A stretch of DNA of 63,023 bases, the filler included, from Reclinomonas americana ATCC 50394 (Eukaryota): the NCBI GenBank assembly GCA_048213135.1. It is 25 parts of 25 records of this genome, joined end to end, with 100 filler letters (N's around TTAATTAATTAA, not from the genome) between each part and the next. Parts side by side here need not be neighbours in the genome. Positions count along the whole stretch, not along the records: positions 1 to 1,694 come from AFZH01020998.1; positions 1,795 to 4,990 come from AFZH01020999.1; positions 5,091 to 7,036 come from AFZH01021000.1; positions 7,137 to 8,764 come from AFZH01021001.1; positions 8,865 to 11,254 come from AFZH01021002.1; positions 11,355 to 13,385 come from AFZH01021003.1; positions 13,486 to 14,689 come from AFZH01021005.1; positions 14,790 to 16,062 come from AFZH01021006.1; 17 more parts are not named here. One strand, 5' to 3'. The translations under genes and the position numbers were made by a program. This document shows, piece after piece, positions 1-61,974 of this stretch; positions within the stretch are counted from its first letter, which is position 1; each line of letters starts with the position of its first letter. The notes beneath the pieces were generated by a model, which was given only the letters and a program-made list of their open reading frames with translations, was not told the DNA's origin and made no database searches.

Positions 1-1582
1 CCTACACACACACACACACAGCCACTGGTCAGCAATCATAATCGGTCACACCACAACTGCATTGACGAAACATGTGCCGCCAGCGCACGCGCGGCCTCCG
101 TGTCGACGCCAGCCAACTCGTCGTCATCAAGTTCCTCGTCCTCGTTGATCTCGTCCAGCTGGTTGCCGCCATCCTCGTCGTCATCGTCGTCAATGACGAC
201 ATTGACGCCGAGCTTGTCGTTCAAGGTGTCGGCTGCACAGGTGAAGACGTGAGCCACTTGCACACACATACACACGCACACACAAGCACACACACACCAT
301 CCACGGCCATGCCATCCTCAGTCTTGAAATCGGTGATTTTGCGAGACAGGTTCGTCAGCTTTGCAAATGCCTCGTCACTGATGGAGCCGAGAAACTCCTG
401 GATCGACGTGCGCTTTTCCGGTTCCTGTGGGAGAGGGAGGGCGAATCAGTTGGATATTCTCTCGCACAGTCACAGCACGCCAGACACCACCACGCAACTC
501 GTTTCCGCTCGTCCTTGAGCACAGTGAGCATTTCGTCGACTGCATTTCGCAGCACGTCGCGTGGCTGGTCGCCAAGCTGCATGTGCACAAATCCCAGCAA
601 CATCTCGTAGACCTGCACACACCCCCAATTAGAAGTGCGACAAGAGTGCGCAAGCGAAGCGCGCGACGAGCATAAACATGCCTGGCGCGTTTCGCCGGTA
701 CGTGGTCGGTACGCCGAGCTGTCCAGCTCGTCCAGTGCCTCCAGCACATTGCCGGCCTGTCCCTTGCGACGCTTGCGCGCAGCCTGCGACATGGCAGCAT
801 CACTGTCGGCCACCTGGTCTGCTGAAGCCTCCAGCCGACGCTTTCTCTTCTCGAGACCCTCTGCCACCTCCTCCGGGCTGCAATAACACAACAAGTCAGA
901 AGCGCGCACGGTGGCTGACTTTGACAAGAAGCATGAAGAAGGAAACACACCGTTCCCGCAAACCAACTCGATCACCCATCTTGCCAATGACATTGCCACG
1001 AATGGTGATCGGCTCGCCCGAAGCCTGTCCATCGCCGCGTCGTGTCCGCGACTCCGACTCGAGTACAAGGTTCACATTCTGTGGACACGTGAACGCGTGT
1101 GTGCAAGTGTGAGTGTGCGCGCGCGCGAGTGTGCAGAGCAACAAAAACATGTTCCACCCCTCTTTCCCACGCTTGCCCACTTCCTCTCCCCTACTGCCAA
1201 CTCACTGCTGTGCACATCGCAGAAAGACGAATGACAAGAAAGAACCACCGTCGACGAGAAGGGTCCACATCACATGTGCCGCATGCGTGCACTTTGCATG
1301 TGACTGCATGTCGCTCGGCATGCAAATGACACCAAGACTCACATGCACACACGCGAATGCACCAGGCTGCGAAGAGAGCGAGCGAGGACAAGAGACAGAG
1401 ACAACACGGTGGCGCACGAGGCACAATGCCCGCCTGCACATGGCGCACACACGCACACACACAGAGAGACGCACGCGCACAAACAACTCTACAGTGCCAC
1501 TCCCGCCTGAACGCACCGACTTGTACTCGTAGCCACGGAACACCTCGTACTCCTGATTGCTGCCGCTCCCCCGGTGCGACAT
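1..1582 (-). CDS. SNRNP200: U5 snRNP 200 kDa helicase Brr2, 5' part (spliced; runs off the window start)
   Basis: Spliced translation MSHRG..GYEYKS|NVNLVLESE..GKMGDRV..YRPRTGETRQ|VYEMLLGFVHMQLGDQPRDVL..LGVNVVIDDDD matches the Brr2 N-terminus (YEYKANSNLVL, MGD, YxPKTxETR, LGDQPRD). Confidence 0.93.
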
Positions 1583-1694
1583 TGTGTTATCAATGCAGGA
1601 CAGACACCCTTCGTTCTTGTCGCTCAACGCTCCGTTTTTACTCGTCGCTACCTCGTCGCTGCACTTTGAGAGAAAAGTCTACGGCCGGGCATCC

Positions 1695-1794
1695 NNNNNN
1701 NNNNNNNNNNNNNNNNNNNNNNNNNNNNNNNNNNNNNNTTAATTAATTAANNNNNNNNNNNNNNNNNNNNNNNNNNNNNNNNNNNNNNNNNNNN
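1695..1794. other. Assembly spacer N44-TTAATTAATTAA-N44 (first of 24; the last is 61560-61659)
   Basis: Identical six-frame stop linker at every contig junction. Missing gene parts show that the true gaps are often much longer than 100 nt. Confidence 0.98.
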
Positions 1795-1843
1795 CCGGAA
1801 CTGTGCGCAGTGAGTGTGTGTGTGTGAGAGAGAGAGAGAGGAT

Positions 1844-1877
<34 letters not shown>

Positions 1878-1881
1878 TGCA

Positions 1882-5233: not shown

Positions 5234-8200
5234 TCACTGCAAAACGAAGAGCTTGTTCAGCAGGTGAATGAGAAGCGACAAGTCTAACTGCACTTCCGCC
5301 AACTCCACCACCGTCTCGCCCTGCTGCTGTCGCTCAAGTAGGTAGCTGAAATCGAGCTGCAGAGAGAATAACCAGTGAACTGCACGCACACAGCACAGCA
5401 GCCGACGACAAAAACGACATACTTGCTTCTCCATCAGTGGCTTCTTCCGGTGCTGAAGCACAAGAGTAAATACACCGGGCTCCATCGAAGAAAAGCACAG
5501 TTGTGTTCGCTTGGCACTACGAGCATGTATGTCGTGAATAAAAAATGAAAGAAAAGTAATAACTCGTACCCCCCGCGCAGCAATCAGACGCAACACATCC
5601 GTCGGCAGCGTCACCGCGGTCACCACACCCTCCGCCTCCATCTTACTGAGTGCGTAGTTGAAGGGTCCAACTACGCGTACAGCGCCGGTATTGCGGCTTG
5701 ATGCATCCCTGCGAGACACGCACATCATCAGCCAGAAACAACACTCAGGGCAGACGGGTGGGCCACACACAGCCACACACACACACCTCGGATTGTACGC
5801 CTTCTTCCGAATGTTGGCGAGGTACTCTTCGAAAAAGTGGCGTTGCCCCTGCGCACGATAAAGCGTCGGCCACGGCATTTCAACAACAGGAGCATAAAAA
5901 CAACGCACCATCAAAAATGTGCTGTGTTCTCTCAACTCGGCCAACACTGATTGCAGCATACGCATGCGCGCTGTCAATGCTTGCATAATCTGAACACGAG
6001 CCTCAATGGTCTGCGAGTTGGAAAATCGGCCAGTAAGACGACGAGGCAGAGAGGGTTGGGTAATCGATAAACAGGGAGATAGGAGACGGCGACGAACCGA
6101 CTGGACGTGGCATAGTATGCACTGGTCGACTGGCACTCGAGCCTCGCCACACACCACCGGTGGTACCATGTCGTCGGTCAGCGCAAGAATGCTCTCGCTC
6201 AGCTGTACAACGGTGCAAGTATGTCAGGAGGCCCACAGAGAGAGGGCGAGAGTGCGAGCGACGTGTGGACATGTTTGCGTACCCGCTTGATCTTGTCAGC
6301 GAGCAAGTAGTCCTCTGTTTGAATTGCATTGAGCTTACCCGTCTGCACACAATCATACAGATCAAGGAGGAGACAAGTCAGCGATATATGTGCAGGTGTC
6401 AGACCGCAACGAATGCATCCCACCTGCAATACAGTGAGCAGGGACAAGCCGCCGATTTGAGCCGGGACCTCGGGAAGCTGCCGCAAGACGCTAACAACGC
6501 CGGAGCACACGGTTTCAAAGGCGCTCAGTGGCTGATGTTGTGGGACGGACTCGGTTTCTGAGAAGACATTGCATGCATGTGTGGGTGCTACCAAAAAATA
6601 ACGACAAGCACGAACACGGGGGGCAACCGCGCGGGGTACCTGGTGCAGGCGATGATTCAAACGGCGGCACCAATCGAAGGTTGAAGAAATTGTTCTCCTC
6701 CGGTGGTACGTCCAGCGGTGGATCGCCTTGTGCACGCAGCTGTGTAACCAGCGCGCTCAGCTCATCGGTTGGGTCCGGAGCCTGTGAGCGCAGAGACAGA
6801 GAGAGTGTGTGTGAGGAGGAAAGGCTCATGCTTTCGCCGCCGTGTACAATGGTGTGCCAGCGTAACTATTGAGCCAATGTGCTCCAGCAGCAGTCGGTGG
6901 ATCATAAACACTTCGTTCAGCGAGATGCTAATCACATTCGAGTCGCGCCGTGTGGACTCGAGATACCGGTCAACCTACGCCAGATTAAAGAACATACACG
7001 GTCGGCGAACCATCTACCAACACACACACACACACANNNNNNNNNNNNNNNNNNNNNNNNNNNNNNNNNNNNNNNNNNNNTTAATTAATTAANNNNNNNN
7101 NNNNNNNNNNNNNNNNNNNNNNNNNNNNNNNNNNNNAAAGAATGCCGTGACGCGAGTGCCGTTGCGTTCAAAAAACTCATTCAGCGGTGTCATGTACGCC
7201 TCCTTTCCGCCGTACATGACTCCGTTGCTCAGATTCTGCAAACGACAACGTTTAGCACGACGCAAAGCAGGCGGCCAATAGACACGCCAACAACAGCTGT
7301 CGTACCTGTACTAGCTTGCCGATGATAATAAAATTGCGCTGCATCACTTCTGTCACGCTCTCCGGTCGCAACAAATCTTTGGCTGCTCAATGGTACAGTA
7401 ATTCGTGTTAGTGGCGAAAGCCAGAATGAACAAAACATACAACAGTGGAGCAACACACAACTCTGTGGGCTACTGATGGCTGGCGTGATGAACCGCAGGA
7501 ATGCAAGACCACCAACAAGTCCCCACCGCTCTCGCTCGTCGATGTCAGGGTAGAAGGTCTGCAGCGCCAATGACAAACAGCTGTGAAGCGACGGCTCCTG
7601 TGGCGGCAAGTGTGCAAAGGACGCGTACCGCTCCGTACTCCAATATCTTCTTGCACAAGAAACGCAGGCCATACGGCACCTTCTGGACCGATGCAATAAT
7701 GCGATCCACAATCAACTGAGTGTGTTCCTGGATCAACCGGAATCCTGCAAGCAGGCACAACAACAACAAACAACGCGTGATGAGTGAACTGCCAGTCGCA
7801 ATCACCACTTGTCGAGTTACGCACGATCTTCCATGATGGCACGAACGGCGGGAATTTCAGCAGCTTCACCATCCTCCAACGACTCAGGACCCGGCAACGG
7901 TCTTCCCTCGCGCTGTGCGGCCTCTCGAAGACCGCGATACAGCTGTCTCCACAACGCACATGCATGTGCACAATTTAGGTCGGACAGCAGAGCACGCGTG
8001 TTTTTCAGAAGAGAAATCTGCGTGTAGCGCACCGTCGACGGGCGGATTTCCAAATCGAGTTCACCCTGCGCCACCAGCTCCTGCAGTGGCTGCGACAAGG
8101 TGTCTGTCAAGTACTCTCGGCACATTCGGCGGCTGCGCGCGCCACACGTGTGAGAGAGAGACATTGTTCGTCAACACAGAAGCGGGGGACGCTGCGGCGC

Positions 8201-8711
8201 ACTTGAAAAACACGTTGAGCATTTTGGTGAAAATAGTGTTGGTGCGCATGAAATCCGTGCGTCGGGGACACCGCTCAAACTCTTGCATCATCAGCATCTA
8301 CACCAACGGCGGCGAGCGGCAGCAGAGCAGCAGCATCAATATCAGACACGCATGCAGCGAAGACACGGCTCCACCCGACGCACCTCGAACATCGTAAGCA
8401 ACAGCCGCTCCTCCTTGCTGTCGTACTGATCACCAAAGAGCGTCAGTACCACCGTCTGCAACATTCGTTGGACGTCGCCTGCGCGCACACACGCCCGTGA
8501 GTGGAAGCACGACGAGACGCAAAAAAACCACGACTTTTTTTGGCACGCAACGACCCGACACAAACTGCACCAGACTGGCCATGTACTGCGGCGATCGCTG
8601 CAACACGAAAAAGATATTTTCGTACAGCCGGAATCGTTCCGCCACCTGCGAGGTCTGCGGCACAGCATCTTTGACGTCGCGCAGCGATTGCGACAACAAT
8701 CCCTTCAAATC
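5234..8711 (-). CDS. RasGAP with RasGAP_C domain (Gap1/Sar1, IQGAP-related family), 5'-partial
   Basis: LFGDQYDSKEERLLL, DFMRTNT (arginine finger), VPYGLRFLCK, VGGLAFLRFITPAISSPQ, YMTPLNEFF; C-terminal LDLSLLIHLLNKLF. Confidence 0.88.
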
Positions 8712-8918
8712 CTGCACATCGAAAGAACACACACACAGAGAGAGAGAGAGAGAGGGAGAAAAGCNNNNNNNNNNNNNNNNNNNNNNNNNNNNNNNNNNNN
8801 NNNNNNNNTTAATTAATTAANNNNNNNNNNNNNNNNNNNNNNNNNNNNNNNNNNNNNNNNNNNNGGTACTGGTGGTGGTCGCTGATTGGTTGCACGTATG
8901 ACCGTGTCATGCACGCAG

Positions 8919-9871
8919 GAAAGACAAGTTACTTGTTGCGACTCACAAAGAACAAGTTCGAAGAGAGCTACAAGCACACCATTGGCGGTGAGAGTGGCAG
9001 ATGTGTGTTTCTTCTTGCACGCTGCGTGTTGACAAACGAACCACTGCAGTCGACTATGCCAGTGTCAAGTATGACGTGCTTGGACTGGCGCTTGATGTCG
9101 AATTGTTTCGTTTGTTCACTGTGTGTGTGTGTGCATCTGCAGTGACTTACTCCTTGCACGCAGATGGGATACAGCCGGCAACGAACGGTACCGAGCGGTC
9201 AGTCGCAGCTACTTTTCCGGTTGCGATGGTGTCATCATTGCGTACGACGTGACGACACCTGCGTCATTCCGCAACGCACAAACATGGCACACCGAAGTCC
9301 TACAAATGACCGGCAGTCGCATGCCATTGTTCATGCTCCTCGGCCTCAAGAGCGATCTCCCAGTTGTGTGACTTCATGCGCCCCTGCTACTGCACGCTTA
9401 CCGCCACAGGTCGTCGTCGTTGCTGACTCTCTTTCGTGCGCGAGTGCAGGAAATCGTTACCGAAGCTGAGGAGGAGGCACTTGCGTCCGAGTTGCACATG
9501 ACGATGCATGGAAGGGCAAGCGCCAAGTATGGTTTGTTGCACGCACCTCTGCACCGACCGGCCAACGCTGCCAGTGAAACATGCCTCATTGTGTACGTGT
9601 ATGTGTTTTGGTAGAAACGCACGTGCGGTCCTTGTTTGACTCGTTTTCGCTCGCGCTTCTCGAACGCACGGCACGCGGGCCAACCGGTTCAACAAGTCCA
9701 GGTGCGCACTCTGTGCATTGCACTCGCGCGCTGGTAACGAATTAACAAGTGTGCTTGTTGAACGCAGAGGAGAAGCGAGTGCGGTTGCACGATCTGCAGG
9801 GCGGAAGTGGCAGCGGTGCGCGCTCAGGTGACGGCCACCAGGAGCAACCGCGAAATACGTGTCGCTGTTAA
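8919..9871 (+). CDS. Rab-family small GTPase (Rab34/36-like), 5'-partial
   Basis: GKTS..YKHTIG|VDY..L|WDTAGNERYRAVSRSYF..LLGLKSDL..RASAK; C-terminal CxC prenylation motif (TCRC*). Confidence 0.88.
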
Positions 9872-9907
9872 CTAGAATCACTACGGTGCATGCACGTATA
9901 CTACTGC

Positions 9908-19056
<9,149 letters not shown>

Positions 19057-19224: not shown

Positions 19225-20541
19225 AACTATCAGGGGTGAGTCTCCTATTCTATTCTGCATCTGGTCGGTTCGCTCTGCAGTCACCTGACACGATCGTGTG
19301 GCGTGGCGCAGCAAGTATCCGCACGAGGTGCCGCCCAACGTGTTCGCCTTGGCCGAGCTTGCCTATCGCAATCTGTGCTACCAGAAGGAGAACCAGTGTG
19401 TCATTATCTCGTTGCGTTTGTCAGGCCGTGTCTCAGGCGTTGAACGAGTTCAACTGACCAGACGGCGTCAGTGGTGAGAGTGGCGCAGGCAAGACAGAGA
19501 CCGCCAAAATCTTCACGAGCTACATTGCTCGCGTATCTGGTGACTCCGAGCGTGCACAACAAATCAAGGCCATGATGATGGAGTCGAATCCGGTGCGTTT
19601 TCGTTGTGTGTGCGCTCTCTCCCGCTCGTGAATATGTGCGACCTGACCGCACTGCGACTTTGCGGCCGTGCAGATGCTTGAGGCTTTCGGTAACGCCAAG
19701 ACGTTGCGCAACGACAACTCGTCTCGCTTCGGCAAGTTTTTCGAGATCCAGTTCAACACGATTGGACAGCCTGTGGGTGGAAAAATCACGAATTGTTGCG
19801 TACCTTGTGGCCAGTGCATTCTCCCGCTCTCTGCAGCTCACGACGCATCACCTAGATCTGCTGGAGAAATCGCGAGTCGTGAACCAGATTGCAGGCGAAC
19901 GCAACTTTCACATTTTCTACCAGCTGTGCGCTGGCTTGTCACGCGACGAGAAGGGTTTGTCGGCATGAGCGCTGCACTGTTGTTGTCCACGTGTGCACTT
20001 TCCTCATCCTTCTCTGCAGCCGCTTACCGACTCGGCACGGCTCGGGACTACTTCTACCTGACTCGCGGCCAGACCACAGAAATTGCTGGTGTCAACGACG
20101 CGGAGGATTTCCATGCTTGTGTGGTGCGTTGCAATTTGTTTTTCCCTGTATCTCGGGACGAAAAAACTGAGCCTCTTTGTGATGGCTGCGGCTATCGATC
20201 AGCATGGTATGGAAGTCATGGGTATCAACAGCGCGGAGCGGAATCAGCTGTTCTCGATTCTCGCTGCCATTCTGCACCTTGGCAATATCGAGTTTGTGCC
20301 ACACGACTCTGGTTCCACCATTCGCAATCCTGACGGTTCGCCAGTAATCCTGTACCCCCCGAGCGCAGACTGTGTGTGCGTGTGTTGATTTGTGGTTTGC
20401 CCGTGTCCCGCAGCGTTGCAAATGACGGCTCACCTGTTGGGAGTGGAAAGTGCAACACTGACCGACGCGCTGGTCACCCGTCGTGTACAAATTGGCGGCC
20501 GCCGTGGCTCCATCATTCGCTCGCCTCTCAACCCCGACCAG
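19225..20541 (+). CDS. Myosin motor domain fragment, class I-like
   Basis: [75 protein letters not shown]. Confidence 0.93.
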
Positions 20542-20656
20542 GTACATTCAGCTGTTNNNNNNNNNNNNNNNNNNNNNNNNNNNNNNNNNNNNNNNNNNNN
20601 TTAATTAATTAANNNNNNNNNNNNNNNNNNNNNNNNNNNNNNNNNNNNNNNNNNNN

Positions 20657-22010
20657 GACGACGGAGGGTACGACTCGGATGTCACCGACGACGATGCCGG
20701 TGATTCCCCGCGTAACGATCACGTGATCTTTCGTGCTGCCGATGGAAGCATTTACTTGGGTGAGATCTCTGTGTGTGCGTAAGTGCGAGAGAGCGCGCGG
20801 CAGGGAGAATGCTGATGTGGTGTGTGTGTGTGTGTGTGTGTATGCGCGCGCACGCGCACAGGGCACGATCCTCGTTGGCCCCTGTCCAATCCGCCACCAC
20901 TGAGTAGTGTGGCAGAGTACGGTCGACTGCCGGTGTACTCGCAGTTTGACTTGCTGCGCTTGGCGCCACACCTGCCTGGTGGTGCAGGCGGTGGTGCAGC
21001 CGGGCATCCACACGACCTGGCTGGTTTGTCATCTGCTCACGTCTTCCGTGTTCCAATCTTTTTTTTCATGTCGACTTTAGACGCACAACTTGAGGCACGG
21101 CTAGCAGAGTTGGCCACTCTCACGCGCGCAGACTACGAGATTATGGTGTTTATGCGGCGGCGCCGCTCATTCTTGTTTCTGCTGGCGCTTGATGCCTTTT
21201 ATTTTCTTTTGCTGCTGCTCGGTTACGTTGGCGACGCACTGTTTCCCTTCGCCTCCCCGCCGCGCTCTTCTCATGCAGAGATGAACTTGTGTAGTGTCAT
21301 TCACCTCCAAAGTGGAGACTGATCACGACACGCTTTCGCTGTCAAGCCGCGTTGCGAACGTGCTCATCGATACATTCGGAGTCTTTGTTGTGTTGAAGAG
21401 TTGCGGGGACTCGACGCAGAGATCGTGCAACCCACCACCTCATCAATGGTGTGCTCCGCAGACAACATCAGCGGTCTCTCGGCGTTTGTGGTTCTCGAGA
21501 CTCTGAGTCTGGCCTTCATGACGTTTCGTGACACACTTTTTGTGCTTCTCCGCTGTGTGCGTCGACGCTGACGTACGTTGGTGTAGATTTTCGGAGCTGA
21601 CACCATTGATTCTGGTCCGCCTTGTAATTCTGCTGCTGGCCCTGCAACTCAAGTCCAACCTGAAGGGAATTTATGATGTTGCGATTGGCACGATAATCTT
21701 TGCACTGCGTACTCTATAGTTGCCGTGCACGCTGATCCCGTCGTCGTCGTGTATACAGTTACTCCATTCGGTGGCGCTCATCAGTGCGAGCGATGACATG
21801 AATGCTGCTGATCGCGACGATGGTCTGGCGTCGGAGTCGAGTGACAGCGAGTCGAGCGGATCCGATGTGGAGAATCCTCGCCCTGAACACCCCCCCGCTC
21901 GTAGCGACCGCGCACTACTTCGTGCGCCCTCAGAGCCTGCCGAAGTTGTATCTGGTAACGCCAGGGCGCCGCTGCCGTTGCCCATCATGTCGGACGCTGT
22001 AAGAGTGTAG
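20657..22010 (+). CDS. Unknown multi-pass (about 4 TM) membrane protein, 5'-partial
   Basis: Seven exons join in phase. Hydrophobic segments include FLFLLALDAFYFLLLLL, VLIDTFGVFVVL, LSAFVVLETLSLAF and LILVRLVILLLAL. Acidic tail; TAG at 22010. Confidence 0.7.
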
Positions 22011-22047: not shown

Positions 22048-24315
22048 TCAGTATCCAAACTTTGCGTTCAGAGCTGTTCTCCCGTCGCCCCTCTGGCCAG
22101 TGGGAGCTACCCAAGCGGATTCGCTTGACGCCGTCTCGTCCTCGTCTTCACGCGTGTCGCCGACAACAGTTGTGTTGCCGGACATTTCCGCCAGGCGATG
22201 CAAGTCCACATCCACGTCACCCACAACGGACGCATCGATCACCAGCTGAGCATCCGGATCCAGCGACCGACGAACGTCTTCCAGCTGTCGGCGCCGGGCA
22301 GCCTGTTTCGCCAGGTGTTGAGCGTCGTCGGCTTCCGGGTCAGCTGTGCCTGTACCTCCCGTCATCCCTGCGCGTCGGTTCGTGGTCGGCGCTGCCGCAC
22401 GCTTCCGCCCGAGTGCTGGTGGCGGAGCCATGTCACCATCAAACACACTAAGTGCCGCATCGAGCAGCGCCTCGGCCTTCTTCTGCTGCGTGCGGGAAGC
22501 AGTGGACACGGCAGGCCTTCGAGCAGACGACGCTAGAGCGAGAGAGAGAGAGAGAGAGAGACGAAAGCAAAGAGTTAGCGACGCAGGAGCCTCCTCTGCG
22601 AGACAAAGTATGATGATGATGATGATGANNNNNNNNNNNNNNNNNNNNNNNNNNNNNNNNNNNNNNNNNNNNTTAATTAATTAANNNNNNNNNNNNNNNN
22701 NNNNNNNNNNNNNNNNNNNNNNNNNNNNCAGGCTTGAAGCACGATTCGTACAGGAAAGATTGCTGCGCAACTCTGGTTGTGCCTGTTGTGATTCTGGCAC
22801 CGCAGCAGGAGTTTCTTTCGTGATGTTACTACTTCTGACGTCAAACGAACAGCACGCAGTGAGCAACTCAGACTCACAAGGACAACAACTCTCGACTGCC
22901 ACGAAACGACGCCGATGGAACAGACGACACATGACTGTGCCTCGAGAGTCAAAGTAAGTGTCAGCTGGAAAACACAAAACAACACACCAAAAAAAAATGC
23001 ACCTTCCAGGAGCGCGCAAGGCGGGACGTGTCAACTCTGCAACGAGAGAATTCAGCAAATCACGGTCACTCGATGCGGGGGACTCAAGCAACAAATGACC
23101 GACCGACAAGGCGCTGAACAGAGGCCAGCTCGGTATCCACAGCCGTCAGTTGCGTTCGGAGTGTACCCTCATCGTCACGCTGTGTCGATACGCATGAATG
23201 ACGGACACACACGGGGAGAGAGAAGCTGGGTGATCAACAAAACCTTGATGCTGCTCTGTATCTCTTGCATGTACGCGTCAAGTTCGTCGTCGACAGGCGC
23301 TGACAGTCAAAAAGCGAGACCACTGTGAGAAGCAACTCGACCAACACATCAATGGAGGTGAACATACAGCGGACACACCGACGGCTGCTTCAGTGGCCGA
23401 CGAGGTCGCAGCTAGGAGCGCGCGTAGACGTGTCTGTTCAGCAAGCAGCTCGTCCATCCGTTTCGACAACGTCTCAAATGTCTCCACCGGAGCCGCCTCC
23501 GCCAGAGAACTCTTGTCTCCCCGTCGACGCTTTCCTGACAAGAAAAAACGCGGTTGGTGGCCATGAGAACCACACGGAGAGGAGTCGCGAGAGCGCAACG
23601 ACGTGCAGTGCGATCGTAGAATTCGTCCTCGTCCGAGTCGTCGGAATCGCGCCCACGTTTTCGCACCACTGGCCCGGTGTCTGCAGCCGCATCTCATGAG
23701 ACGAAGCACGTCACTTTGCGCTACTCATGCAAGCAGCAACTACGAACCCTCGGCCGCCTCGCTTTCCTTCTCTCCATGGCCTTCCTCGTCGCTGTCCGAG
23801 GGATACTCTGGACTCCAGTCACCCCCGTCCATGCCCCTGCGACTCACGTGAATCAGCAAGCAGTGGATCACGCAACCGTGAGGGCGATGGTCGTTGTGAT
23901 AGCCACGCACCACGAGCAACCCTCGCTGTCGTCTGCACGCGCAAATGCATGAGTCCCCACAGCTCGTCGCCGCGCTGACGCTGGTGGAGCAATGTTCTTG
24001 TAGAACTCCTTGTCGGGCCCGCCGCCAAGAACAAACATGCGGGTGGACTGGCCAAACGTGACAATGTCACCGGTGCGCACACGTGTGTACACTCTGCGCT
24101 CACGAGAAGAAGCACATTGAGGTAACAAGTCACGCCCATACGCATCGAGAAAGAGACGTACTTGGGCTTTACCGCCTTCCTGTTCCACGCACTGCCGTGC
24201 GTCGAGCCGCAGTCGTACAGGAACACCTCCCGAGTCGCACCGCGATGCTGAATGACTGCGTGTTGGCGCGACACAGAGGGATGCTCGAGAATAATGTCGC
24301 AGGAGCTGTGCCGGC
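22048..24315 (-). CDS. SLC4A1AP: Kanadaptin (FHA-domain protein), 5'-partial
   Basis: FHA domain GRHSSCDIILEHPSVSRQHAVIQH..DCGSTHG..GDIVTFGQSTRMFVL; DSDEDEFYDRT; C-terminus WVAPTGQRGDGRTALNAKFGY*. Confidence 0.9.
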
Positions 24316-35405: not shown

Positions 35406-37440
35406 GCCACAAACATCCACTCCCATTCCGGTTGTTTCCGTGTCGCCGTTTGACGTTCCCGAGTCGGCGGCCGCTGGGAGCAGCGAACCAAGGTGATACA
35501 CTCACACAAAAGAGACAACAAAGGCTCAGTCTCTTTGCTCTATACACTTGACTCCTTGTTGTATCTGAGTCTCTGTGCTCGTGGTGTGTGTTTGATGCTT
35601 CCGAGCCCATGACATTTTGTCGTGTGTGCGATGTCTGCTTCAGCTTGTCTTGCATGCTCTGTATATGTGATTCGAGCTTCCTGGTACTTCCGTTCATCCT
35701 TGGCCTTTCTGTTGTTCTGTTTTCCTTTCCTTCTTTTTGTTGCCGCTCACACCCTTCATCATCGCCAGTGACGCCGAGGAGGAAGACTACGGACCACGCC
35801 GACCTGGACGGGAGGAAGAGGAAGAAGAGGAGGACCGTGCCCCCGCCGTGTCGGCTGCCGCCGGCGCTGTGAGTGGTGCATCCGCTGCTGCCGCCGCCAT
35901 GGCCAGCAGTGACGCCGAGGAGGAGGAAGAGGAGGACGCGGATGAGCGACACGATCGCGATGATGACGACGATGATGATGATGACGAGCATGGTGGTGCA
36001 GCGAGCAGTGCGTCGGAGAGCAGTGGCACTCGACAGCGACCTCGGCGCCGCCCGCGCACCGTGTCGGTGGACCGCATGGTGAACACGATGTTGCAGATGG
36101 GCATTCCCCCGACGCAAAGCAACGTGCTGCGCTTCCTGTTATTGCAGTCGAGGTGAGGATATGAGAGGGGATTGTGTCTCTGGCTTTGTTGCACTTTAGT
36201 GACTGTTTCTGTTTGCAGGCTCGGTCTGCAGCTGGACGATGAGGACGAAGAGAGTGAGGCGGGCAGTGCGTCGGGCGGCAGCACAGCGACAGCTGGCTCA
36301 TCCGGCAGCCGTGCCCCCACCCATCGCGGCCGGCTACCAATTGACGCCAAGACTTACAAGCGCAAGTTCGAGGGCCACGTGTCGCGGAGAACGTTGCGCC
36401 CATCCCGCAACTATTTGATGGCTTTGCATTGTGTGCTCACTTAACGACCACCGCAGCATCAAGTCCTGCAACTTCTTCGGTCCCAACTCCGAGTACGTCG
36501 TCTCGGGCTCGGATGACGCCCGCATCTACATTTGGGAGAAGAGAACTGGGCGTCTCTTGAATGTGCTGGAAGGTTCTTCGTTTACCCCCGTACGTTGCGC
36601 AAGAGTGGTCGTCTCATGGTCACGCAGGTCACGACTCGGTGGTCAACTGCGTGGAGGCGCACCCCACACGGCCCGTGCTCGTCTCCAGTGGCATCGATCA
36701 CGAGGCGTTTGTGTGGGAGCCGCACGGCAACTCGATCTACCTCAGCGATCTGGCGGAGCAGCGGGATGAGCGGCGGCGGTTCATGGATACTATAATAGAG
36801 GTGAGTTGTGGGGAGAAGAGGGTGGTGGTTAGGAGGGTGGAGGTGGAGAGTGCGGGGAGCGTGGGAGGTGAAGATGGTGGAGAGCGTGTGAGTAAGGGGT
36901 GGGGAGCATGTGGGTAAGAGAGTGGGGGTGTGTGGGGAGGGTGTTAGCTGCGGAGAGTGGAGAGCATGTGAGGTGAAGAGAGGGTGGAAGTGTGAGACTG
37001 AGGAGGGTTGGGAACGTATGAGTAAAGAGAGTGGGGAACGTGTCAGTTGAAGAGAGAGGGTGGAAGCGTGAGACTGAGAAGGGTTGGCTGCGTGTAGGTA
37101 AAGAGGGTTGGGAACGTGTCAGTTGAAGAGATGGTGGAAGTGTGAGACTGAGGAGGGTTGGGAACGTATGAGTAAAGAGAGTGGAGAGCGTGCGAGGTGA
37201 AGAGAGGGTGGAGAGCGTGAGACTGAGGAAGATGGGGAGCGTGTGGGTGAAAAGAGTGGAGAGCGTGTGAGGTGAAGATCGTGGGGAGCGTGTGAGGTTA
37301 AAGGGCGGAAAGCGTGTGAGCCGAAGAGGATGGGAGTTTGTGAGGTAATGAGGTTGGGGAGTGCGTGCTGGAGGCTCAACCTGTCATCGGTGCAGGAAAA
37401 CCGCAATTCGCCGCCGCGCAATGGCTGCAGCCTGATGTGA
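35406..37440 (+). CDS. DCAF8: DCAF8/WDR42-like WD40 protein, 3' part
   Basis: YKRKFEGH..TL|SIKSCNFFGPNSEYVVSGSDDARIYIWEK..LEG|HDSVVNCVEAHPTRPVLVSSGID; last exon ENRNSPPRNGCSLM*. Confidence 0.8.
36830..37360. repeat. G/A-rich degenerate minisatellite in the last DCAF8 intron
   Basis: Recurring gagagggtggaagtgtgagactgaggagggttgggaacgtatgagtaaagagagtgg and related ~20-nt sub-units. Confidence 0.85.
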
Positions 37441-37549: not shown

Positions 37550-38954
37550 TCACTGATTGCAGTCCTCCTCGGGCGACCGTGTTCGAATCCAGTAAATGGG
37601 TCGCGGGCTCCAAAAGTCGCCATCGTCGCCACGCTCTCCTCTCTCATTAAACACCTTTCTGAACTCGTTGTAGTACAGCGGGGCTTGCTGGACCGAAATG
37701 TACATGTCGGTGGTCTGCGAGGGGAGGAAGGGGGAAAGGAGGCAAGGTTGAGTGCGTGATCAATAGGGGGAAGAGAGATGAGAACGTGATCAAGGGTGAT
37801 AGGAGATGAGTAATCAAAGGGGACAGGAGATGAGAGTGAGATCATGGGAGATACGAGGTGAGAGAGTGATCAAGCACGCGATGAAAAGTAGGGGCTCTCT
37901 CTCTGTGTTACATGTGCTCCCCACACTCACCGGTTCAAAGGGTGTCAGGAAGTCGCCCTCAAATCGCTGTGCTCAGAAGGTGAGCCGTTTGTCCACCATT
38001 ACATCACACATTACAACTCACCGCACACGGTGGGGCCGGGGTGGCAAAGATATTCAACGGGCCACCACCCTCCCAGTTGAAATCAAAGGCCGCGGCCTTT
38101 ACAAAGTCAGTGGTGAAGCCAAGGCCACCACGGAAGGCGACGTCTGTGCGCCGACTCGTGAGTACACAAGGGGGAAATAGGCAGGCTCTGTGAGGAGTGC
38201 GCAACAGAGGCGGTTCTTTGGCGGAAACGTAAAGGCGCCGTCACGCACAATGATGCGAGCAGCGTCCTCGCGAACGCTGCGGAACACAAACTTGGAGCCG
38301 TCTGCGCACAGCAATGAGTCTCAACACACGATGTGAGTTGCGCAGGCTACCGCACCTGGCAGTGGTCGCACGAGTGCCATGTCGGGCACCTCGCCGAGTC
38401 GCAGCACTTCTACTTCGCTCTGGTGTCGATTCGGTCTCGATTTCATCTCCCTGCGGACGACAGACGGAGATAAGCGATGACCGACGCGCCAGTGATCACA
38501 GAGAGGAGCAAGCGGCTGAAACATCGAGGAGGCACGCCCAACAAGCGAATCACAGCCAGGAGAAAGGAAGGACTCGATCGCGAAATAGATGCCCGAGGCA
38601 ATCAGTGCCTCACTCACTCCGATTCTTCACAATCGCCACCATCAACAACACACAAATACGAGCCCAAACGAAAGGAAAAGCACAATCCACGACAACTCGA
38701 TGTCAACACCGCGCAAACTCCGAGACGACGACGACGCGCCAAATGTGTGCATTTGAGCATCATTCTCTCTCACACAAACACAACATGCACACCAGTTTCC
38801 ATGAATGCGCAAGAGTGAACGGAGGTGAGGGAGAGAGTGTGTGACAGAGAGTGAAGTGCAGGAGTGTATTCTCGTCTTCGCACTCAGTTCTCTCAGGCTC
38901 CCTCCTCTGTCTCTCCGTCTCTCTCACACACACGCTCTCTGTGCACGTGTGAAC

Positions 38955-38993
<39 letters not shown>

Positions 38994-39099
38994 TGAGCGC
39001 GTATTCTCGACTCCGTTCTACATTGCTCAAGATCACACACGATGACAAGCTCACGAGCCACACACTCTCTCTTAGCGCGTGCAAGTGTGAACGAGTGCG

Positions 39100-39148
<49 letters not shown>

Positions 39149-39231
39149 AAGAGAGTGAGCGCGTTCTCGACTCCGCTTCTCTCTCTCTCTTTCTCATCTT
39201 CCTCTCGAACACACAACGCGATCACTCAAGC

Positions 39232-39268
<37 letters not shown>

Positions 39269-40655: not shown

Positions 40656-41027
40656 TCCTCTGCACATTGCTTCTCGTTCACGCTAATCTGTAATTCTGCC
40701 TCCATTTGCTTTCTCCTTAAGTCTCTGTCCTTTCCACAACCTCATCGCCTGTCATTGTGCTTCATCCTTCTCCCTGCAATTTGCGCGCTCGAATTTCTGT
40801 CATCCTCCTCTTGATTGCCTTTGCCTCTGCTCTCCTCTCCTCTGTGACAGCACGCTCTTCTCTCCCCCTCGCACAACTGTCACCCAGCCGTGCCCAGCCT
40901 CTTTTCCTCCTCTTTTCTGCCTTCCATTCTCTGTGTGCTATCTCACATCCCTTCCCCCCTTCCCCCCTCCCTTCCCCCCTTCCCCTTCCCCCCATCCCCT
41001 CCTTCCCCCCTTCCCCCTTTCCCGCAG

Positions 41028-43322
41028 ACCCCGAACTCGCCCCACCCCGTCAACGCCCGCACTACGCCACCGCCCCTCGACCCTCTCCCGACCACTACCC
41101 CGGCGCACCACCTCGCCCATACCACCAACCCTCATTTCGCGGTTGCGTCGCCCGCCCCCCTTCTCTCCTTCCCTTTCCCCACCTCTCCTCACCGTGCCAC
41201 AGGCGGTCGCGGTCGCGGCCGCGGACGCCCACCAACCATCATCACGCGGTCGACTGGCCCGCAGCAACCGCGCCCCTTCTCCGCCCGGTCTCCACCACCC
41301 CCCTCGTCCTCCCCGTCCACGCCAACGACTCCCGGCACAGGCGCCGTGGCCTCGCCACCAGCCTCCATTCCTCGCTTGTCGCTCGGCCGATCGGCCACCG
41401 AGTCCGAGTCGCCTGTGGGCGGTCGCCGTGCACCACCAATCGAAATGGATCGCACCAACAAGCGGATGAACCCGCAGCTGCGAAAGGAATTCGTCAACAG
41501 CAAGGTTACACACCTCCCTCTCCTCTTTCCTCTCTCTCTCTCTTTCTCACTTTCCCACCCTCACAGGAGGCCATGCGCGAGCGCTTCAATCGCAAGCCCT
41601 CCGCCGGCCACATCAACGACTACTCGCAGCACTTTGTCGACACGGGCGAGCGGCCGCAGAATTTCATCACCAACGTCGGCCCCAGCAAGTTTGACGACTA
41701 CCCCGAACTGCAGGAGCTGGTCCGGCTCAAGGACGCGCTGGTGGCCGAACGCAACACGCCACCATTCTCGCTCAAATGCGATCTGCGCACCTTCGATCTC
41801 GCCTCGCTCAAGTGCCAATTCGATGTGATTCTCGTGGATCCGCCGTGGTCCGAGTATCAGCGCCGCCTGCCCGGCCTCGTGCGCAGCAGCTGGTCCTACG
41901 AGGAGATGTGTCGACTCAATGTCCGTGCACTGGCGGCGCCGGCCAGCTTTGTGTTTCTGTGGGCGGGGTCGGCCGATGGAGTGGATCAGGGTGCGTTTTT
42001 GTTGGGGAAGGAGGTGCATTTGTCGTCTTCGGTCGTGCTCATCGTTCTCTCTGCCTTGCTCTCATTCTTTTCCCTCTGTTGCTCTCTTTCTTCTCTCCGC
42101 CTTGCACTCATTCTTCTCCCTGCCGCGCCCTCTTTCTTCTCTCTCTCTCTCGGCCAAGCTCGTCTCTCCGCCTCGCTCTCGTTCCTCTCTTTGTCTTGGT
42201 CTCTTTCTTCTCTCGTTTTGCTCTCTTTCTTCTCGGTCGTGCTCTCTTTCTTCTCTCTGTTGTGCTCTCGTTCTTCTCTCTCTTCCGTTCTTTCCTCTCT
42301 CTATCTCGTCTCTTTGTATTGCTCTCGTTCTCTCGGACAGAGAGAACGAAAGCGAGGCGGAGAGAAGAAAGAGAGCACGACAGAGAGAAGTGAGGCAGCA
42401 AGGCAGAAAGAGAGAGAGAGAGAGGATAGAAAGAGGGAAGAAAGAGACCAAGACAAAGAGAAGGAAGAGTACAAGGCAGAGAGAAAGAGAGCAAGACAGA
42501 GAGAAGGCAGGGAGAACACAGAGAACAAGAGAAGAAGAAAGAGAGCAGGGCAGAGAGAAGGCTCTCTTTCTCTCCGCCTTGTACTCATTCTTCTCGTCTT
42601 GGTCTCTTTCTTCTCTCTGTCTTGCTCTCTTTCTTCTCTCTGCCTTGCGCTCTTTCTTCTCTCGGTCTTGCTCTCTCTCTTCTCTCTGCCTTGCTGTCTT
42701 TCTTCTCCCTGCCTCGCCTCTTTCTTCTCTCGGTCTTGCTCGCTTTCATCTCTCTCTCTCTCTTCCGTTCTGTCCTCTCTTTCTCTCGTCTCTCTGCATT
42801 GCTCTCGTTCTTTCATCTTTCTTCTTTGCTCTCTCTTTCATCTCTCTTTCCTCTCTCTTTCTCTCTGTCCCTCACTCACTCTCTCTCCCTCTCCTTCTCG
42901 GCGACAGGCCGCCTGCTCCTCACACGCTGGGGCTTCCGCCGCGTGGAGGAAATCTGCTGGATCAAGTCCAACAAGGTGCGCAACAAGCTCGAGTCGGTGG
43001 AGGTCGGCACGCTGTTCAAGCACTCCAAGGAGCACTGTCTGGTGGGCATGCACGGCACCGTTCGGCGCAGCCACGACGGGCACTTGGTGCACGCGAATAT
43101 CGACACGGATGTGATTGTGGCGGAGGAGCCGCCGTTGGGAAGTTGCGTGGAGAAAGGGAAAGGGGATAGGGAAGGGGGAAAAGGAAAGAGAGGGAGAGAG
43201 AAATGGGGAAGGAGAGGCGAATAGAGAGAAGGAGATGATACAAGCACCTGTCCTCACGGCAGTGTGTATTGTTCGAGAAGATGCATGTGGCATGGCGCTG
43301 TCTTGTCTTCTTTGATGCAATC

Positions 43323-44630: not shown

Positions 44631-47600
44631 TCATGTCGTGGGTGGTCGACGCGGTGGCGGGATCGTCGACGCGGCCGGTGCCGTCGGCGGCCGAATCGTC
44701 ACGTGACTCAGACTGGCGAGTGATGATTGCGCGGCCGCACTGCCAGTCACGCTGCCGGAACCCGACGCCAGCGAGCCGTGACCCGACGACATGCCAGACG
44801 GCGATCCCGTGCGGTAGTCCACGCTGCCGGCCCCGCTATAGGCCGCCGCCGACGTGGAGTCGGGGGCGTCGGGAGTGGCAATGCGCGCACGACCGCGCAG
44901 CTGATTCGCCGCCAGAGACAGCAGAGTGACGGGACCGGTCGACACTGGCACCGCGTGCGAATCTGTCGGCATGGCGCGATGCACGTCGACATGCGTGGAG
45001 AGCGCATCGCCACGCCCACCCTCTGGCAGCGCCGGCAGCGGCGGTGTGCTGCTGTGCAACAGGCGACGTCCAGACGACGACGAAGACGATGTGCTGTGCG
45101 AGTCCTGCCACATGTCGTCGCCGACTCGTCGCCGCATTCGCATACCGGGGGCCGACATGGCATCTGAAAATGGAAAAGGGTGGTGTCACACACACACACT
45201 CACGTTGATATACACACAATCCCCCATCCCTCTCTCTCACCACCAGCGGCGCGAACCTTCGTCAGCTCGCGGCGCAGCGGCCTGTGCACGTCCCGCTGCT
45301 GCTGCTGCATCGTGGCCTCCACGACCACCACCACCACCGTGCGAGCTATTTGGCCGTCCAGCGGCCGACACGGTGGTGGGTGAGGGCGCCGCAGCAGACG
45401 AGGACGAACCGCCACCGCCACCACCAGACGCCGCAGCATTGGCCGCCGCCGCACGTCTCCGCATCATGACATCGCGCGCCTGTTCGCGCGACGGCTCCAC
45501 GTTGAAATGGCGCACGACGGGCGCATTCGGGTCAGCCGGCACCACCTGGGCGGGCGGCACAGGGGCACCGGGAACCACGGCACCGGCTTGCGCGCCTGCC
45601 GCTGCCGCACCCGCGCCCGNNNNNNNNNNNNNNNNNNNNNNNNNNNNNNNNNNNNNNNNNNNNTTAATTAATTAANNNNNNNNNNNNNNNNNNNNNNNNN
45701 NNNNNNNNNNNNNNNNNNNAAGAGAGAAAGAAAGGAAGTAGAGAGAGAGAGAGAGAGAGGAGTGAGATTCATGAGCGTGCGCAATGGTGAGGGGCACAGA
45801 GAGTACGCACTGTTCGATAATCTGCCCGAGATTCGGGTGCAAAAAGGGAGACACCGGTCGCACGAGGTACCCCAGGTAAATGTACATGACGTACACAATG
45901 AGCTGGTTGAGGGTGGGCGGAAGCTGGGGTGCGGCAAAGATGGATGAGCGCACAGTGATCGGAAGAGTTGAGCGACAAACAAAAACTTACCCACGCCTGA
46001 CGCCACGAGAACAGGTACAGGTCGATAAACACCAACATCACCGGATACACGAGGAACACAATGACGAAAATGACGAGCATGTACCTGTGGCAACGCAAAA
46101 GAAGAGTGTGAGAAACAAACAAACAGAATCCTTTATGTGATCCTGCGCACGCAACTGGTACCACATGACACGCCGCGGCAGGTTGAAATGCGAGGCCATC
46201 TCCAGCGTCACCCAGCTTCGCAGGCGCTCTGTGTTGGTGCTGAGGGTGATGATGATGGCCAGCAGCACGATGAAGCGCATGACGAGTTCGGTGGCGAGGA
46301 AGGCGGTGCAGACGGTGGAGCCGGAGCAGAGGGCCGAGAGGAGTTGGAAGAGGAGGTAGAGGGCGAACAGGCCTGTGGGGGGAGAAGGGTGAGAAGGGGG
46401 GAAAGGGGAGGGGGAAAGGGGAGAGGGAAGGGTGGGGAAAGGGGAGAGGGAAGGGTTGGGAAACGGGAGAAGGAAAGACGGTGGCGGAGAGGAGACAAAT
46501 GGGAGGGATAGGAATCAGAAGGGAAGCAAGGAGGGAGAGAGAGAGAAAGAGAAAGAAAGAAAGCAAGAAAGAAAAGGGGAAAAACCAACAGCGAGAGAGG
46601 CCAGGCAATCAATGAGAATGAGACAACTCAAGAAGTGATAATGCGAGGGCAATCGCAGCACTGAAGCGCGAGGACTGAAGAAGAAGCTCACCTCCTAGCA
46701 TCTGATACTCGCGTGCATTGAGATGCATGCGCAAAACGCGCCACCCGAGCGACAGCAACATAATGTATGCCAGCAGCGTGTTCACAGAGAGAACGCCAAG
46801 GATACTCGACACCGTACTGTCGCGACAGGAAGAGAGTTAGTATGTGTCAGTGTAGGGCTGACAGGGCAAGTGCGCAACTAAAAGCCGTTGCTCTCGTTGC
46901 CCGTCTGGCCAATCTCGATCTGGTTCACGAAGCGGAAGAGCATTTCCATCACTTTGATGACGACCACTGCACTGAAAATGTGCTGCAGGATGCGTGTGCT
47001 CCGCCTGTGCGAGAGATGTGCGTCAGCATACATACAAAGAGTCTCCATAGATATCTCTCATTCAACGAACTCGGGTCACATTATCCTTATCTCAGTCACC
47101 AAAAGAATGAGGAACGAAGGATGCACAGTAAAACACTCTCCCACGCGTTCTCGCTTTTTGTCTCAACCCTGCCATCTCTCTCCTTTACACGCACACCAAA
47201 CACAGACGGCTAGGTCAATACTAGAACGAGAGGAATGAAACATGCACAGTAAAACACTCTCCCACGCGTTCTCGCTTTTTGTCTCAACCCTGCCATCTCT
47301 CTCCTTTACACGCACACCAAACACAGACGGCTAGGTCAATACTAGAACGAGAGGAATGAAACATGCACAGTAAAACACTCTCCCACGCGTTCTCGCTTTT
47401 TGTCTCAACCCTGCCATCTCTCTCCTTTACACGCACACCAAACACAGACGGCTAGGTCAATACTAGAACGAGAGGAATGAAACATGCACATGAAAACACT
47501 CTCCCACGAGCTCTCTCTTTCTCTCCCCTTTGCAGACGAAGGGATAATTTTAGAATGATTGGAAAGACACGTGCGCAGTAGAACACTCTCTCACGCGCTC

Positions 47601-60500: not shown

Positions 60501-61974
60501 CATGGCTTGAATACTTAAAGGTGGAGGTGAGGGAGAGAATGCCAGTATTATGAAAGAAGTGCAAGTGCTCTTGGCTGGTGCAAAGAGCAAAAGGTGGCTG
60601 TCGAAAGAAAGGGAACTGCGGTGCCACAGAGCGCAGAGGAATATCACATTGGTTCGCAAGAAAGGAAGCTATGTTGCCACAGATCAGAGGTTCACATTAT
60701 CGTCGACAGAAAAAATAATGTAGAGCGCGTGATGTCGGCTGCTCCCTGACAGATAATCATATCGTCTTCGAATTAAACAGGAATAGTAAGGAAAAGCTAT
60801 TGGGTGGTGCCTTCCAGTGCAGCGGGAAATCACAAGCCTTCAACAGAAAGAGAAACAACGACAGAGGACTTTCACACGGTCGTCGAAAGAACAAGAATCA
60901 ATGACGGAGATAGCAGCGCAAGATTGCGAACAAGCAGTAGCAGCATGACGCCACGATGGTTCGAATTCTTGGACGTATAACGGAGGCAAGCAAAGAATAA
61001 TGCTGAGGCCGCTGAAGCGTGCAATTCGCCCACATCTCTCTCTTGACTCAACACGAACTTCTTCTCCGAATTATGTGAAACCATTCTTCTCCCTCTCCCA
61101 CATACCGGCTTCATGATCCACACGGCACCCGGATACTTCTTGAACTCCTCCACAAAGAGTGTGTACTCGGCCGGCAACACAAAGGTGGTCGGCGCAAAGT
61201 CGTACTTGGCGGCCTCTGGATTCTGATCGCGCAGCAGCTGCTTGTGACATCGCTTGATGTTTTTCACCAACAGGTCCTTGCGGGTCATCTGTGAAAAGGG
61301 GGAGGAGAGGAGAAGGGAAGATTGATAAGAGAAGTGGATGGAGAGTGAAGAAAAAATGGAAGAAGTAGACGAGGCAGAAAGACAAGCAGGAAAGGGGGGA
61401 GGATAGTGGGAAATGGCAGTAAAAGATGAAGACGAAGAATAAGAAGAGAGAGAAAGAAAGACAAACAACTGAGTTCACAAGACGCACTACCTCCTCCTCG
61501 CCCTCTCCTCATCAAACGCACCTCGTAGTGATTGCGGAAATGATTGACGCGCTGATTGTNNNNNNNNNNNNNNNNNNNNNNNNNNNNNNNNNNNNNNNNN
61601 NNNTTAATTAATTAANNNNNNNNNNNNNNNNNNNNNNNNNNNNNNNNNNNNNNNNNNNNAACAGACGTGGAAGAAGAAGAAGAAGAAGAAGAAGAAGAAG
61701 AGGCAGGCACTCGTCGCCTCGCCATCGCAGGCACACCACGATGAGCAGACGACCACAATGCGCTCTTCTTCTTCTTCTCATCATCATCATCGTCGATGAT
61801 CTTGATGAAGGGAGAGGAGGAATGCATCATCGTCGTCGCATGCTGCTTGCTGTCGATGAGCATCATGTCTGCTTTCTCGTCTTCGTCGCACGGAGAAGAA
61901 GCAGACATTGGCTGCGAAGGAGTTGTTGTTGTTGTTGAGTGAGGGCGAGGAGGAGGAGGACGTCGAGCGGCCAT
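57584..61974 (-). CDS. TTLL9: Tubulin polyglutamylase TTLL9 (start at 61974 or 61725)
   Basis: [101 protein letters not shown]. Confidence 0.92.
57830..58370 (+). repeat. Polypurine (GGGGAAGAGAG-type) tract in a TTLL9 intron
   Basis: About 540 nt of nearly pure A/G with ~15-nt periodicity. Confidence 0.9.

Follow-up and report, generated by a model that had tools for sequence, protein, structure and literature searches.

Pairing of U1 small nuclear RNA (snRNA) with 5' splice sites in registers other than the canonical one is established for human genes, where shifted and bulged registers are rare exceptions that have been demonstrated site by site (PMC4856993 and the review PMC9311317, in the portions available to us). 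At human shifted-register sites (Roca and Krainer 2009, as related in the available portion of PMC4856993), a GU stands at the cut, the U1-complementary block is displaced by one base, the +1 G replaces the -1 G, cleavage falls at the GU and the -1 base is not G. The same arrangement is seen in a second class of 5' splice sites (donors) that we describe here in a 63,023-base stretch of DNA from Reclinomonas americana ATCC 50394 (assembly GCA_048213135.1), the whole of which is called the window below. Unlike the human sites, which are rare and based on GUAAGU according to the same source, the donors described here carry a GCGU block and make up about an eighth to a quarter of predicted introns, and their pairing with U1 is putative.

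Other described systems resemble this class in part. As in bulge +2/+3 sites (Roca et al. 2012, as related in the available portion of PMC4856993), an extra U stands right after the GU and the downstream block would pair one base later; those sites keep their -1 G pairing, however, and here the -1 G is lost and avoided. As in the exon/intron compensation described in PMC10599564 (in the portion available), where -1G is negatively coupled with +4A/+5G/+6T, the last exon base depends statistically on intronic positions. Such negative coupling leads one to expect more -1 G in donors without canonical-register +5G/+6T, but the sign is opposite here, weak canonical-register +5/+6 going with less -1 G. 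U1 snRNA variants whose 5' ends are altered (PMC3561869 and PMC10870369, each in the portion available) could supply a dedicated reader of the second class. When GTTGCG or GUUGCG(U) was sought as a whole word in the full-text literature, none of the matches listed dealt with splicing, and among the matches listed for unusual donors, U1 and protists no such donor class is reported, nor is one in the available portion of PMC3033335. The type of mechanism is known, and a genome that uses it for one of its commonest donor motifs was not found in the literature searched; the class is a real and frequent variant of a known rare mechanism. An organism with such a site among its commonest donors would show, across a whole genome and by a natural experiment, to what extent U1 binding is decoupled from the choice of the cleavage site, and it would raise the question of co-evolution with the U1 5' end or with the U6 interaction.

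The major donor class in the window is G|GT[G/T/A][C/T/A]GT, and the second is N|GTT[G/T]CGT, with the block one base further from the cut. Unsupervised expectation-maximization (EM) with two components plus background, run on intron positions alone, returned GT[G/T/A][C/T/A]GT and GTT[G/T]CGT, the second motif being the first with one T inserted at +3 (GTGcGT versus GTTGCGT). A comparison of offsets agrees, since an offset of +1 brings the summed divergence between the classes (positions -3 to +8) down to 1.45, from 3.17 without an offset; the claim of the original prediction that the intronic block is moved by one base, with T at +3, is thereby borne out. Verified donors of the GTTTGT and GTTGGT kinds, with their +5 G and +6 T, side with the canonical ones, so it is the position of the G-T block that matters and not T at +3 as such. 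The C position has an information content of 0.73-0.79 in the shifted class versus 0.40 in the canonical class, and G is nearly absent from canonical +4 (2/61). A strong C at +4 in canonical and +5 in shifted donors tentatively suggests a reader whose 5' end is unlike the near-universal ACUUACCU at position 5.

Both classes are frequent. GTTGCG occurs 69 times and GTGCG 272 times on the two strands of the window, and in passes made without any donor model GTGCGT and GTTGCG already headed the donor hexamers, with 4 and 3 of 54 introns and then with 8 and 4 of 66. Given that GTTGCG accounts for 69 of 7639 GT hexamers, its enrichment in these passes has binomial P values of 0.013 and 0.003. GTTGCG alone starts about 12-20% of predicted introns, depending on the intron set, and is the single commonest donor hexamer of the high-confidence set defined below (13/66), while the whole shifted class comes to about a quarter.

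Introns were predicted with our own dynamic-programming (DP) gene finder, which scores codons by log-odds, takes introns as GT...AG and adds an acceptor matrix and a length prior. For donors it scores intron positions +3 to +9 alone and never exon bases, so these cannot steer the choice of donor. Training on the longest open reading frames (ORFs) was discarded, as it gave random donors from a training set dominated by a Pro/Ser-rich low-complexity ORF, and the final codon model was reseeded from 833 Pfam-supported codons, initially without any donor model. The converged model comprises 29 genes and 204 introns, with a median length of 70 nucleotides (nt) and a CAG end in 156/204; one intron with fewer than 4 upstream bases was left out of the counts. 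The high-confidence set consists of the 66/203 introns of 50-110 nt that have a YAG acceptor and, on each side, an exon that is 60 nt or longer and scores positively as coding. A forced-donor scan took in all 341 GTTGCG and GTGCG sites, and these independently built sets replaced the list of 24 donors on which the original prediction rested. The plausible part of the scan excludes four GTTGCG sites that lie at contig ends and lack an acceptor (5105, 22771, 43142 and 53806) and three whose introns exceed 130 nt (14556, 25180 and 49472); the -1 bases of these seven are, in that order, A, A, A, C, C, A and A. The sole G|GTTGCG case, at 30941, lies across an ATG-GTT-GCG reading taken as coding in an earlier model, and is doubtful as a donor. 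Enrichment of donor hexamers anchored on the branch motif was uninformative.

Homology places cleavage before the GT at five GTTGCG donors, as had been proposed. In the N-terminal region of BRR2, the exons on either side of a 74-nt intron with a CAG end (425-498, minus strand; donor A|GTTGCGTGG) align to PDB chain 8ro0_B, one up to residue 144 and the other from residue 145. In the kinase domain of ATR, a 66-nt in-frame intron (11086-11151, minus strand; donor T|GTTGCGCTC) would, if read through, give an ORF of 91 amino acids against 66 positions of the PI3_PI4_kinase profile, that is, an insertion of about 22 amino acids. The myosin head contributes two cases on the plus strand. At 19411-19471 (donor C|GTTGCGTTT) the flanking ORFs match positions 55-91 and 90-134 of the Myosin_head profile, and splicing restores a stretch of the protein; at 19795-19855 (donor T|GTTGCGTAC, TAG acceptor) the profile match breaks off after position 173 at 19793 and is taken up again with position 174 at 19855, the split codon T+AT yielding the Y of ...KITN-Y-LLEKSRV. 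In TTLL9, TTL profile positions 160/159 are contiguous over the junction at 59918-59990 (minus strand; donor T|GTTGCGTGG), over which the closest TTLL9 relative, the spliced homologue P0001 (87% identity), reads ...DNT-Y-IHLTNV.

Eleven canonical donors, all following G, were verified in the same way. Four lie in ATR on the minus strand: GTGCGT at 10679-10684 and GTGAGA at 10427-10432, over which the PI3_PI4_kinase profile is contiguous at about 145|146 and at about 204; GTGAGT at 10955-10960, which is approximate, the profile gap of 73-83 being bridged by about 15 amino acids of two exons; and GTGCGG at 10006-10011, a donor at which the match to FATC profile positions 2-22 stops, the exon that follows reading MYIWWMPW and then a stop. 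The three in the myosin gene (plus strand) are GTGCGT at 19593-19598, with the Myosin_head profile contiguous at about 133|134; GTTTGT at 19955-19960, where the profile ends at 206 and the next exon of 34 amino acids fills the 34 missing positions; and GTGCGT at 20124-20129, after which the profile resumes at 241 with the next exon. The remaining four belong to TTLL9 (minus strand): GTGCGT at 61516-61521, over which homologue P0004 is contiguous; GTATGT at 61100-61105, which starts an intron of about 829 nt and is contiguous at residue 188 of P0001; GTTGGT at 59764-59769, with P0001 residues 332 and 334 on either side; and GTTTGT at 58516-58521, approximate, with residues 406 and 410 on either side.

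The last exon base covaries with the donor class. It had been claimed that this base is most often A and rarely G in GTTGCG donors (A12 T7 C3 G2), and the DP set, built independently, gives A12 C6 T5 G1 (n=24), against G14 C6 T3 A2 for GTGCG (n=25), so that among these predicted introns the -1 base is G in 1/24 versus 14/25 (Fisher p=1.0e-4; for -1 A, p=1.5e-3). The high-confidence set gives A7 C3 T3 G0 for GTTGCG (n=13) versus G9 C2 A1 T0 for GTGCG (n=12; p=1.1e-4), and the plausible part of the forced-donor scan A10 T7 C6 G1 (n=24) versus G17 T8 C7 A6 (n=38; p=4.8e-4); in the implausible remainder the counts are A14 T13 C11 G7 for GTTGCG (n=45) and T75 C59 A53 G46 for GTGCG (n=233). Over eight parameter settings p ranges from 8e-6 to 3e-4 for -1 G and from 1.5e-6 to 1e-4 for GTTNCGT versus GTNNGT. 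The classes assigned by the mixture differ likewise, with A8 C12 G70 T33 in the canonical (n=123) versus A25 C15 G19 T18 in the shifted class (n=77; chi-square p=2e-7), and among homology-verified donors G stands at -1 in 11/11 canonical and 0/5 GTTGCG cases (p=2.3e-4). Against a background for codon position, -1 G is depleted in GTTGCG donors (1 observed, 7.2 expected, P=0.0019), in agreement with the claim that the usual -1 G is missing there, and enriched in GTGCG donors relative to coding sequence (13 observed, 6.8 expected, P=0.006). In base composition the shifted -1 position departs from canonical -1 (p=2.6e-6) and is consistent with canonical -2 (p=0.15). We are highly confident that both donor classes, and the covariation at -1, are real.

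Not every donor named in the original prediction fared equally well. Its 12 GTGCG donors do all follow G, but 9702, 41991 and 52388 are unsupported as donors: the first is antisense to the neighbouring gene, and the other two lie outside the retained gene models and belong to atypical introns (168 nt ending in AAG, and 250 nt). Two of its coordinates were off by one, the positions being 9702 (plus strand) and 55144.

Our results lead us to propose that both classes are read through one template, G-[G/T]-T-N-C/N-G-T, which would be cut 5' of the first GT within it. In shifted donors, the pairing of U1 snRNA, or of another reader of the template, would lie one base downstream of its usual place with respect to the scissile bond; the +1 G would fill the usual place of the -1 G opposite U1 C9, the +3 U would pair with A7 and the +2 U would be mismatched, while the -1 base would face U10 instead of C9, and later spliceosomal steps may then fix cleavage at the GU. 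Such a +1 shift, as inferred in the original prediction, would account at once for the displacement of the block, for T at +3 and for the loss of the -1 G, and we hold it, with moderate confidence, to be the best-supported explanation of the second class, inferring U1 as the reader and a shift instead of a bulge. That a one-base-offset donor is routine in this organism, a fifth or more of its introns being read in the +1-shifted register or by a dedicated U1 variant matching AGUUGCGU, with cleavage decoupled from the U1 register genome-wide, is a wider claim that we put forward tentatively and with some doubt.

Several observations weigh against the +1 shift. When paired with the human-type U1 5' end that PMC4856993 prints (AUACUUACCUG), which may not be that of the host, GTTGCG donors have mean energies of -0.11 (canonical), -0.51 (shifted) and -0.39 kcal/mol (bulge +3), so that the duplex is close to zero in every register and the shifted register gains about 0.4 kcal/mol on average over the canonical one, whereas GTGCG donors reach -3.5. 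Unconstrained duplex energies with the same human-type end are -1.7 for the shifted class, -2.4 for exonic decoy GT sites and -6.1 for the canonical class; the shifted class falls below the decoys, and pairing with a standard U1 therefore does not explain its recognition. It follows that the host U1 differs, or that a variant U1 exists, or that something other than U1 reads the block, and the pairing claim depends on the real U1 of the host. When positions 5, 6 and 8 were varied to give 64 hypothetical U1 5' ends, only G at position 5, which faces the strongly conserved C, separated both classes from the decoys, and ends with G at 5 and A or G at 8 gave the shifted class -9.5 kcal/mol versus -4.3 to -4.9 for decoys. 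The exonic side also fits less neatly than had been claimed. The proposal that the -1 A takes the place of a -2 A does not hold as a simple relabelling, because canonical donors have no preference for A at -2 (10/61); the enrichment of A at -1 in GTTGCG donors is marginal (9 observed, 5.1 expected, P=0.05), A stands at -1 in just 1/5 verified shifted donors, and the shifted -2 position is closer to canonical -2 (p=0.91) than to canonical -3 (p=0.07). At -1, plausible GTTGCG donors are barely unlike the remaining GTTGCG sites (G in 1/24 versus 7/45), which means that much of the contrast between the classes stems from the enrichment of G in the canonical one. Finally, all introns but 16 rest on predictions of our own gene finder, whose sensitivity is about 70-80% as judged on 14 checked donors.

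In a bulged-U register, a first rival reading, U1 would pair normally with the +1 G and +2 U and reach the GCGU block after looping out one U, at +2 or +3. The class does look like the canonical motif with one extra nucleotide after the GT, the bulge +2/+3 register has 68 predicted human sites (Tan et al. 2016, PMC4856993, in the portion available), and with the human-type U1 the bulged and shifted energies given above are nearly equal. A bulge, however, keeps the -1 base opposite C9, so -1 G should be kept or raised, and it is seen in 0-1 of 13-24 donors, below the coding background, and in 0/5 verified ones. A bulge at +3 would moreover tolerate any base, whereas among GT-N-GCG sites donors were called in 23/69 with T and in 2/122 with another base (A 0/12, C 0/48, G 2/62; p=7e-10), a count that is partly circular, the later donor models having learned the T, and that to this extent also tells less for the +1 shift. 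We consider the bulge unlikely. The loss of -1 G equally contradicts ordinary compensation between exon and intron, which, like coding constraint, would explain the covariation without any change of register. The known seesaw predicts more -1 G and not less (PMC10599564, in the portion available). The original prediction had suggested that coding constraints bar a G from -1, and in the high-confidence set phases do lean towards 1 for GTTGCG (7/13) and towards 0 for GTGCG (8/12); but phase tables for the broader classes show no significant difference (p=0.26), the depletion of -1 G survives conditioning on codon position, and in 4/6 phase-0 shifted donors the wobble base is A, the least common choice there (13.7%) and one that could often give way to G without changing the amino acid. 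The suggestion finds no support, and an explanation of this kind seems very improbable.

A reader of its own for the second class, be it a variant U1, another snRNA or a protein exactly complementary to A|GUUGCGU (for example with A for C at U1 position 8), to which the class would be a perfect match instead of a mismatched, shifted one, would explain why the class is so frequent, why its C position is the more informative and how it is recognized although a standard U1 cannot pair with it, and the hypothetical ends with G at 5 and A or G at 8 would serve. Variant U1 snRNAs do occur in humans (PMC3561869 and PMC10870369, in the portions available). On the other side, neither U1 nor any other spliceosomal snRNA gene turned up in the window in Rfam searches at the gathering threshold and at E<=1, and 3' signals and intron length are common to both classes. 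To our knowledge, the U1 5' end is almost invariant across eukaryotes, which we also count against a separate reader, and overall we find this reading rather doubtful. That the GTTGCG donors are an artefact, ordinary coding or intronic sequence picked by hand selection or by errors of the gene finder, can hardly be maintained. The finder recovers 10-11/14 hand-checked donors and makes many tiny spurious exons, and the weak contrast at -1 between donor and non-donor GTTGCG sites could be read in the same way; yet five GTTGCG donors are confirmed through contiguous matches to profiles, to a PDB chain or to a spliced homologue of 87% identity, GTTGCG is enriched even without a donor model, exon bases go unscored and the result is stable in all eight settings. 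The finder errs, if anything, in the other direction, since it missed the verified shifted donor at 19411 in 5/8 settings and that at 19795 in every run, and with 2/5 verified GTTGCG donors missed the class would be under-called. Gene finders with a single donor matrix will mis-annotate this genome.

Apart from their donors, introns of the two classes are alike. Shifted and canonical introns have lengths of 66 and 70 nt (p=0.30), a similar GC content and a CAG acceptor in 21/25 and 52/59 cases, and these common features point to the same spliceosome for both. As U2-type GT-AG introns should, the 5 shifted and 11 canonical verified introns leave profiles and homologues contiguous once removed. 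A branch-like CTSAY motif (CT[CG]A[CT]), with a median position 18-19 nt upstream of the acceptor, occurs in 76% of shifted versus 51% of canonical introns (p=0.05); examples are the introns at 10894-10960 and 11086-11151 (minus strand). U12-type introns, with their strongly conserved RTATCCTT-type 5' motif and distinct 3' signals, were rejected as an identity for the shifted class, which has a GTTGCGT donor and shares length, acceptor and GC content with canonical introns. An introner or other transposon-derived family was likewise rejected, all-vs-all blastn of the 204 predicted introns giving no GTTGCG-GTTGCG pair and matching only microsatellites and one tandem-repeat region. TTLL9 has long introns of about 829 (60277-61105), 1020 (58746-59769) and 710 nt (57808-58521), all on the minus strand, beside the usual ones of 60-80 nt, so intron length is bimodal; the gene finder's intron limit of 400 nt produced false mini-exons in this gene.

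Further introns of the shifted class are predicted throughout the window. Six of those in the high-confidence set fall in genes with some assignment. The intron at 8479-8551 (minus strand; donor C|GTTGCGTGC) lies in an IQGAP-like RasGAP gene, one of its exons having a weak match to IQGAP1 in the PDB (E=0.16) and the other none, and that at 12349-12428 (minus; A|GTTGCGTGT) in the FAT region of ATR, where the FAT profile match stops about 2 amino acids short of the donor; homologue searches with an ATR exon and with the RasGAP ORF found no relatives. The others are at 23535-23599 in an FHA-domain gene (minus; C|GTTGCGCTC), at 28310-28390 in the mitofilin gene (plus; A|GTTGCGTGC), at 36393-36456 in a WD40 gene (plus; C|GTTGCGCCC), with WD40 matches on the downstream ORFs, and at 46085-46155 in a membrane-protein gene (minus; A|GTTGCGTGC). 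A protein of other source that is 79% identical to the product of the last gene, P0121, has extra residues (QFLYCSKW...) at about 290-306, exactly at the site of this intron, and has the look of a prediction left unspliced, in a related genome whose intron at the same site likewise starts with CA|GTT.

The high-confidence set also includes introns at 18237-18312 (minus; A|GTTGCGAAT; forced delta -3.2, TAG), 38144-38205 (minus; T|GTTGCGCAC), 46817-46878 (minus; A|GTTGCGCAC) and 56109-56171 (plus; A|GTTGCGTTT). Predicted by DP with a forced delta of 0 are those at 5517-5594 (minus; T|GTTGCGTCT; 78 nt, TAG), 6343-6410 (minus; C|GTTGCGGTC; 68 nt, CAG), 17920-18005 (minus; A|GTTGCGTCA), 21400-21461 (plus; A|GTTGCGGGG), 56679-56736 (plus; A|GTTGCGTCA) and 56782-56844 (plus; C|GTTGCGTGT), and a plausible intron of 81 nt with a CAG end is found at 21678-21758 (plus; T|GTTGCGATT; forced delta -1.2).

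The window, from an intron-dense eukaryote, has a GC content of 53% and consists of 25 ordered pieces, taken here as one scaffold, joined by 24 identical 100-base spacers, each being N44 + TTAATTAATTAA + N44, a six-frame stop linker that is first seen at 1695-1794 and then at 23 more places. Genes were placed by Pfam profile matches on open frames, which locate BRR2 at 358-1071 (minus strand), the IQGAP-like RasGAP at 7232-8170 (minus), the ATR kinase at 8865-14689 (minus), a class-I-like myosin head at 19289-20556 (plus) and a TTL-family gene at 58308-61474 (minus), the last identified as TTLL9 by homologue search; the FHA protein, mitofilin and the WD40 protein were placed in the same way. 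The ATR gene extends over three consecutive pieces and crosses two spacers, the pieces following gene order and orientation. Past its stop codon, a short ORF at 9212-9373 (minus) has a 2Fe-2S ferredoxin domain match (E=1.9e-4) and is possibly a small gene of its own, situated between ATR and the end of the piece.

Other parts of the window are of unusual composition. A very long ORF, nearly without introns, occupies 30931-35165 (plus strand; exons of 692 and 653 amino acids in the gene model); its product carries dozens of degenerate TDGTIEISGGSITNPSG..VDFG.ENL.TTG repeats and has no Pfam match at E<=0.001. At 48500-49500 (minus) lies a tandem repeat with units of about 90-100 nt ending in ...CTCCTCCTGCCTATCAG, a region that the gene finder cut into many mini-exons and mini-introns, the latter probably not being a set of real introns. 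The Rfam searches yielded solely sub-threshold microRNA (miRNA)-like and small nucleolar RNA-like matches, mostly at about 38900-39250 and 42300-42700. The three forward frames at 40721-43221 (plus) stay open together for more than 2 kb, giving ORFs of 797, 446 and 326 amino acids in a Pro/Ser-rich, low-complexity sequence; this region, which misled the initial codon model, also gathers sub-threshold miRNA-like Rfam matches.

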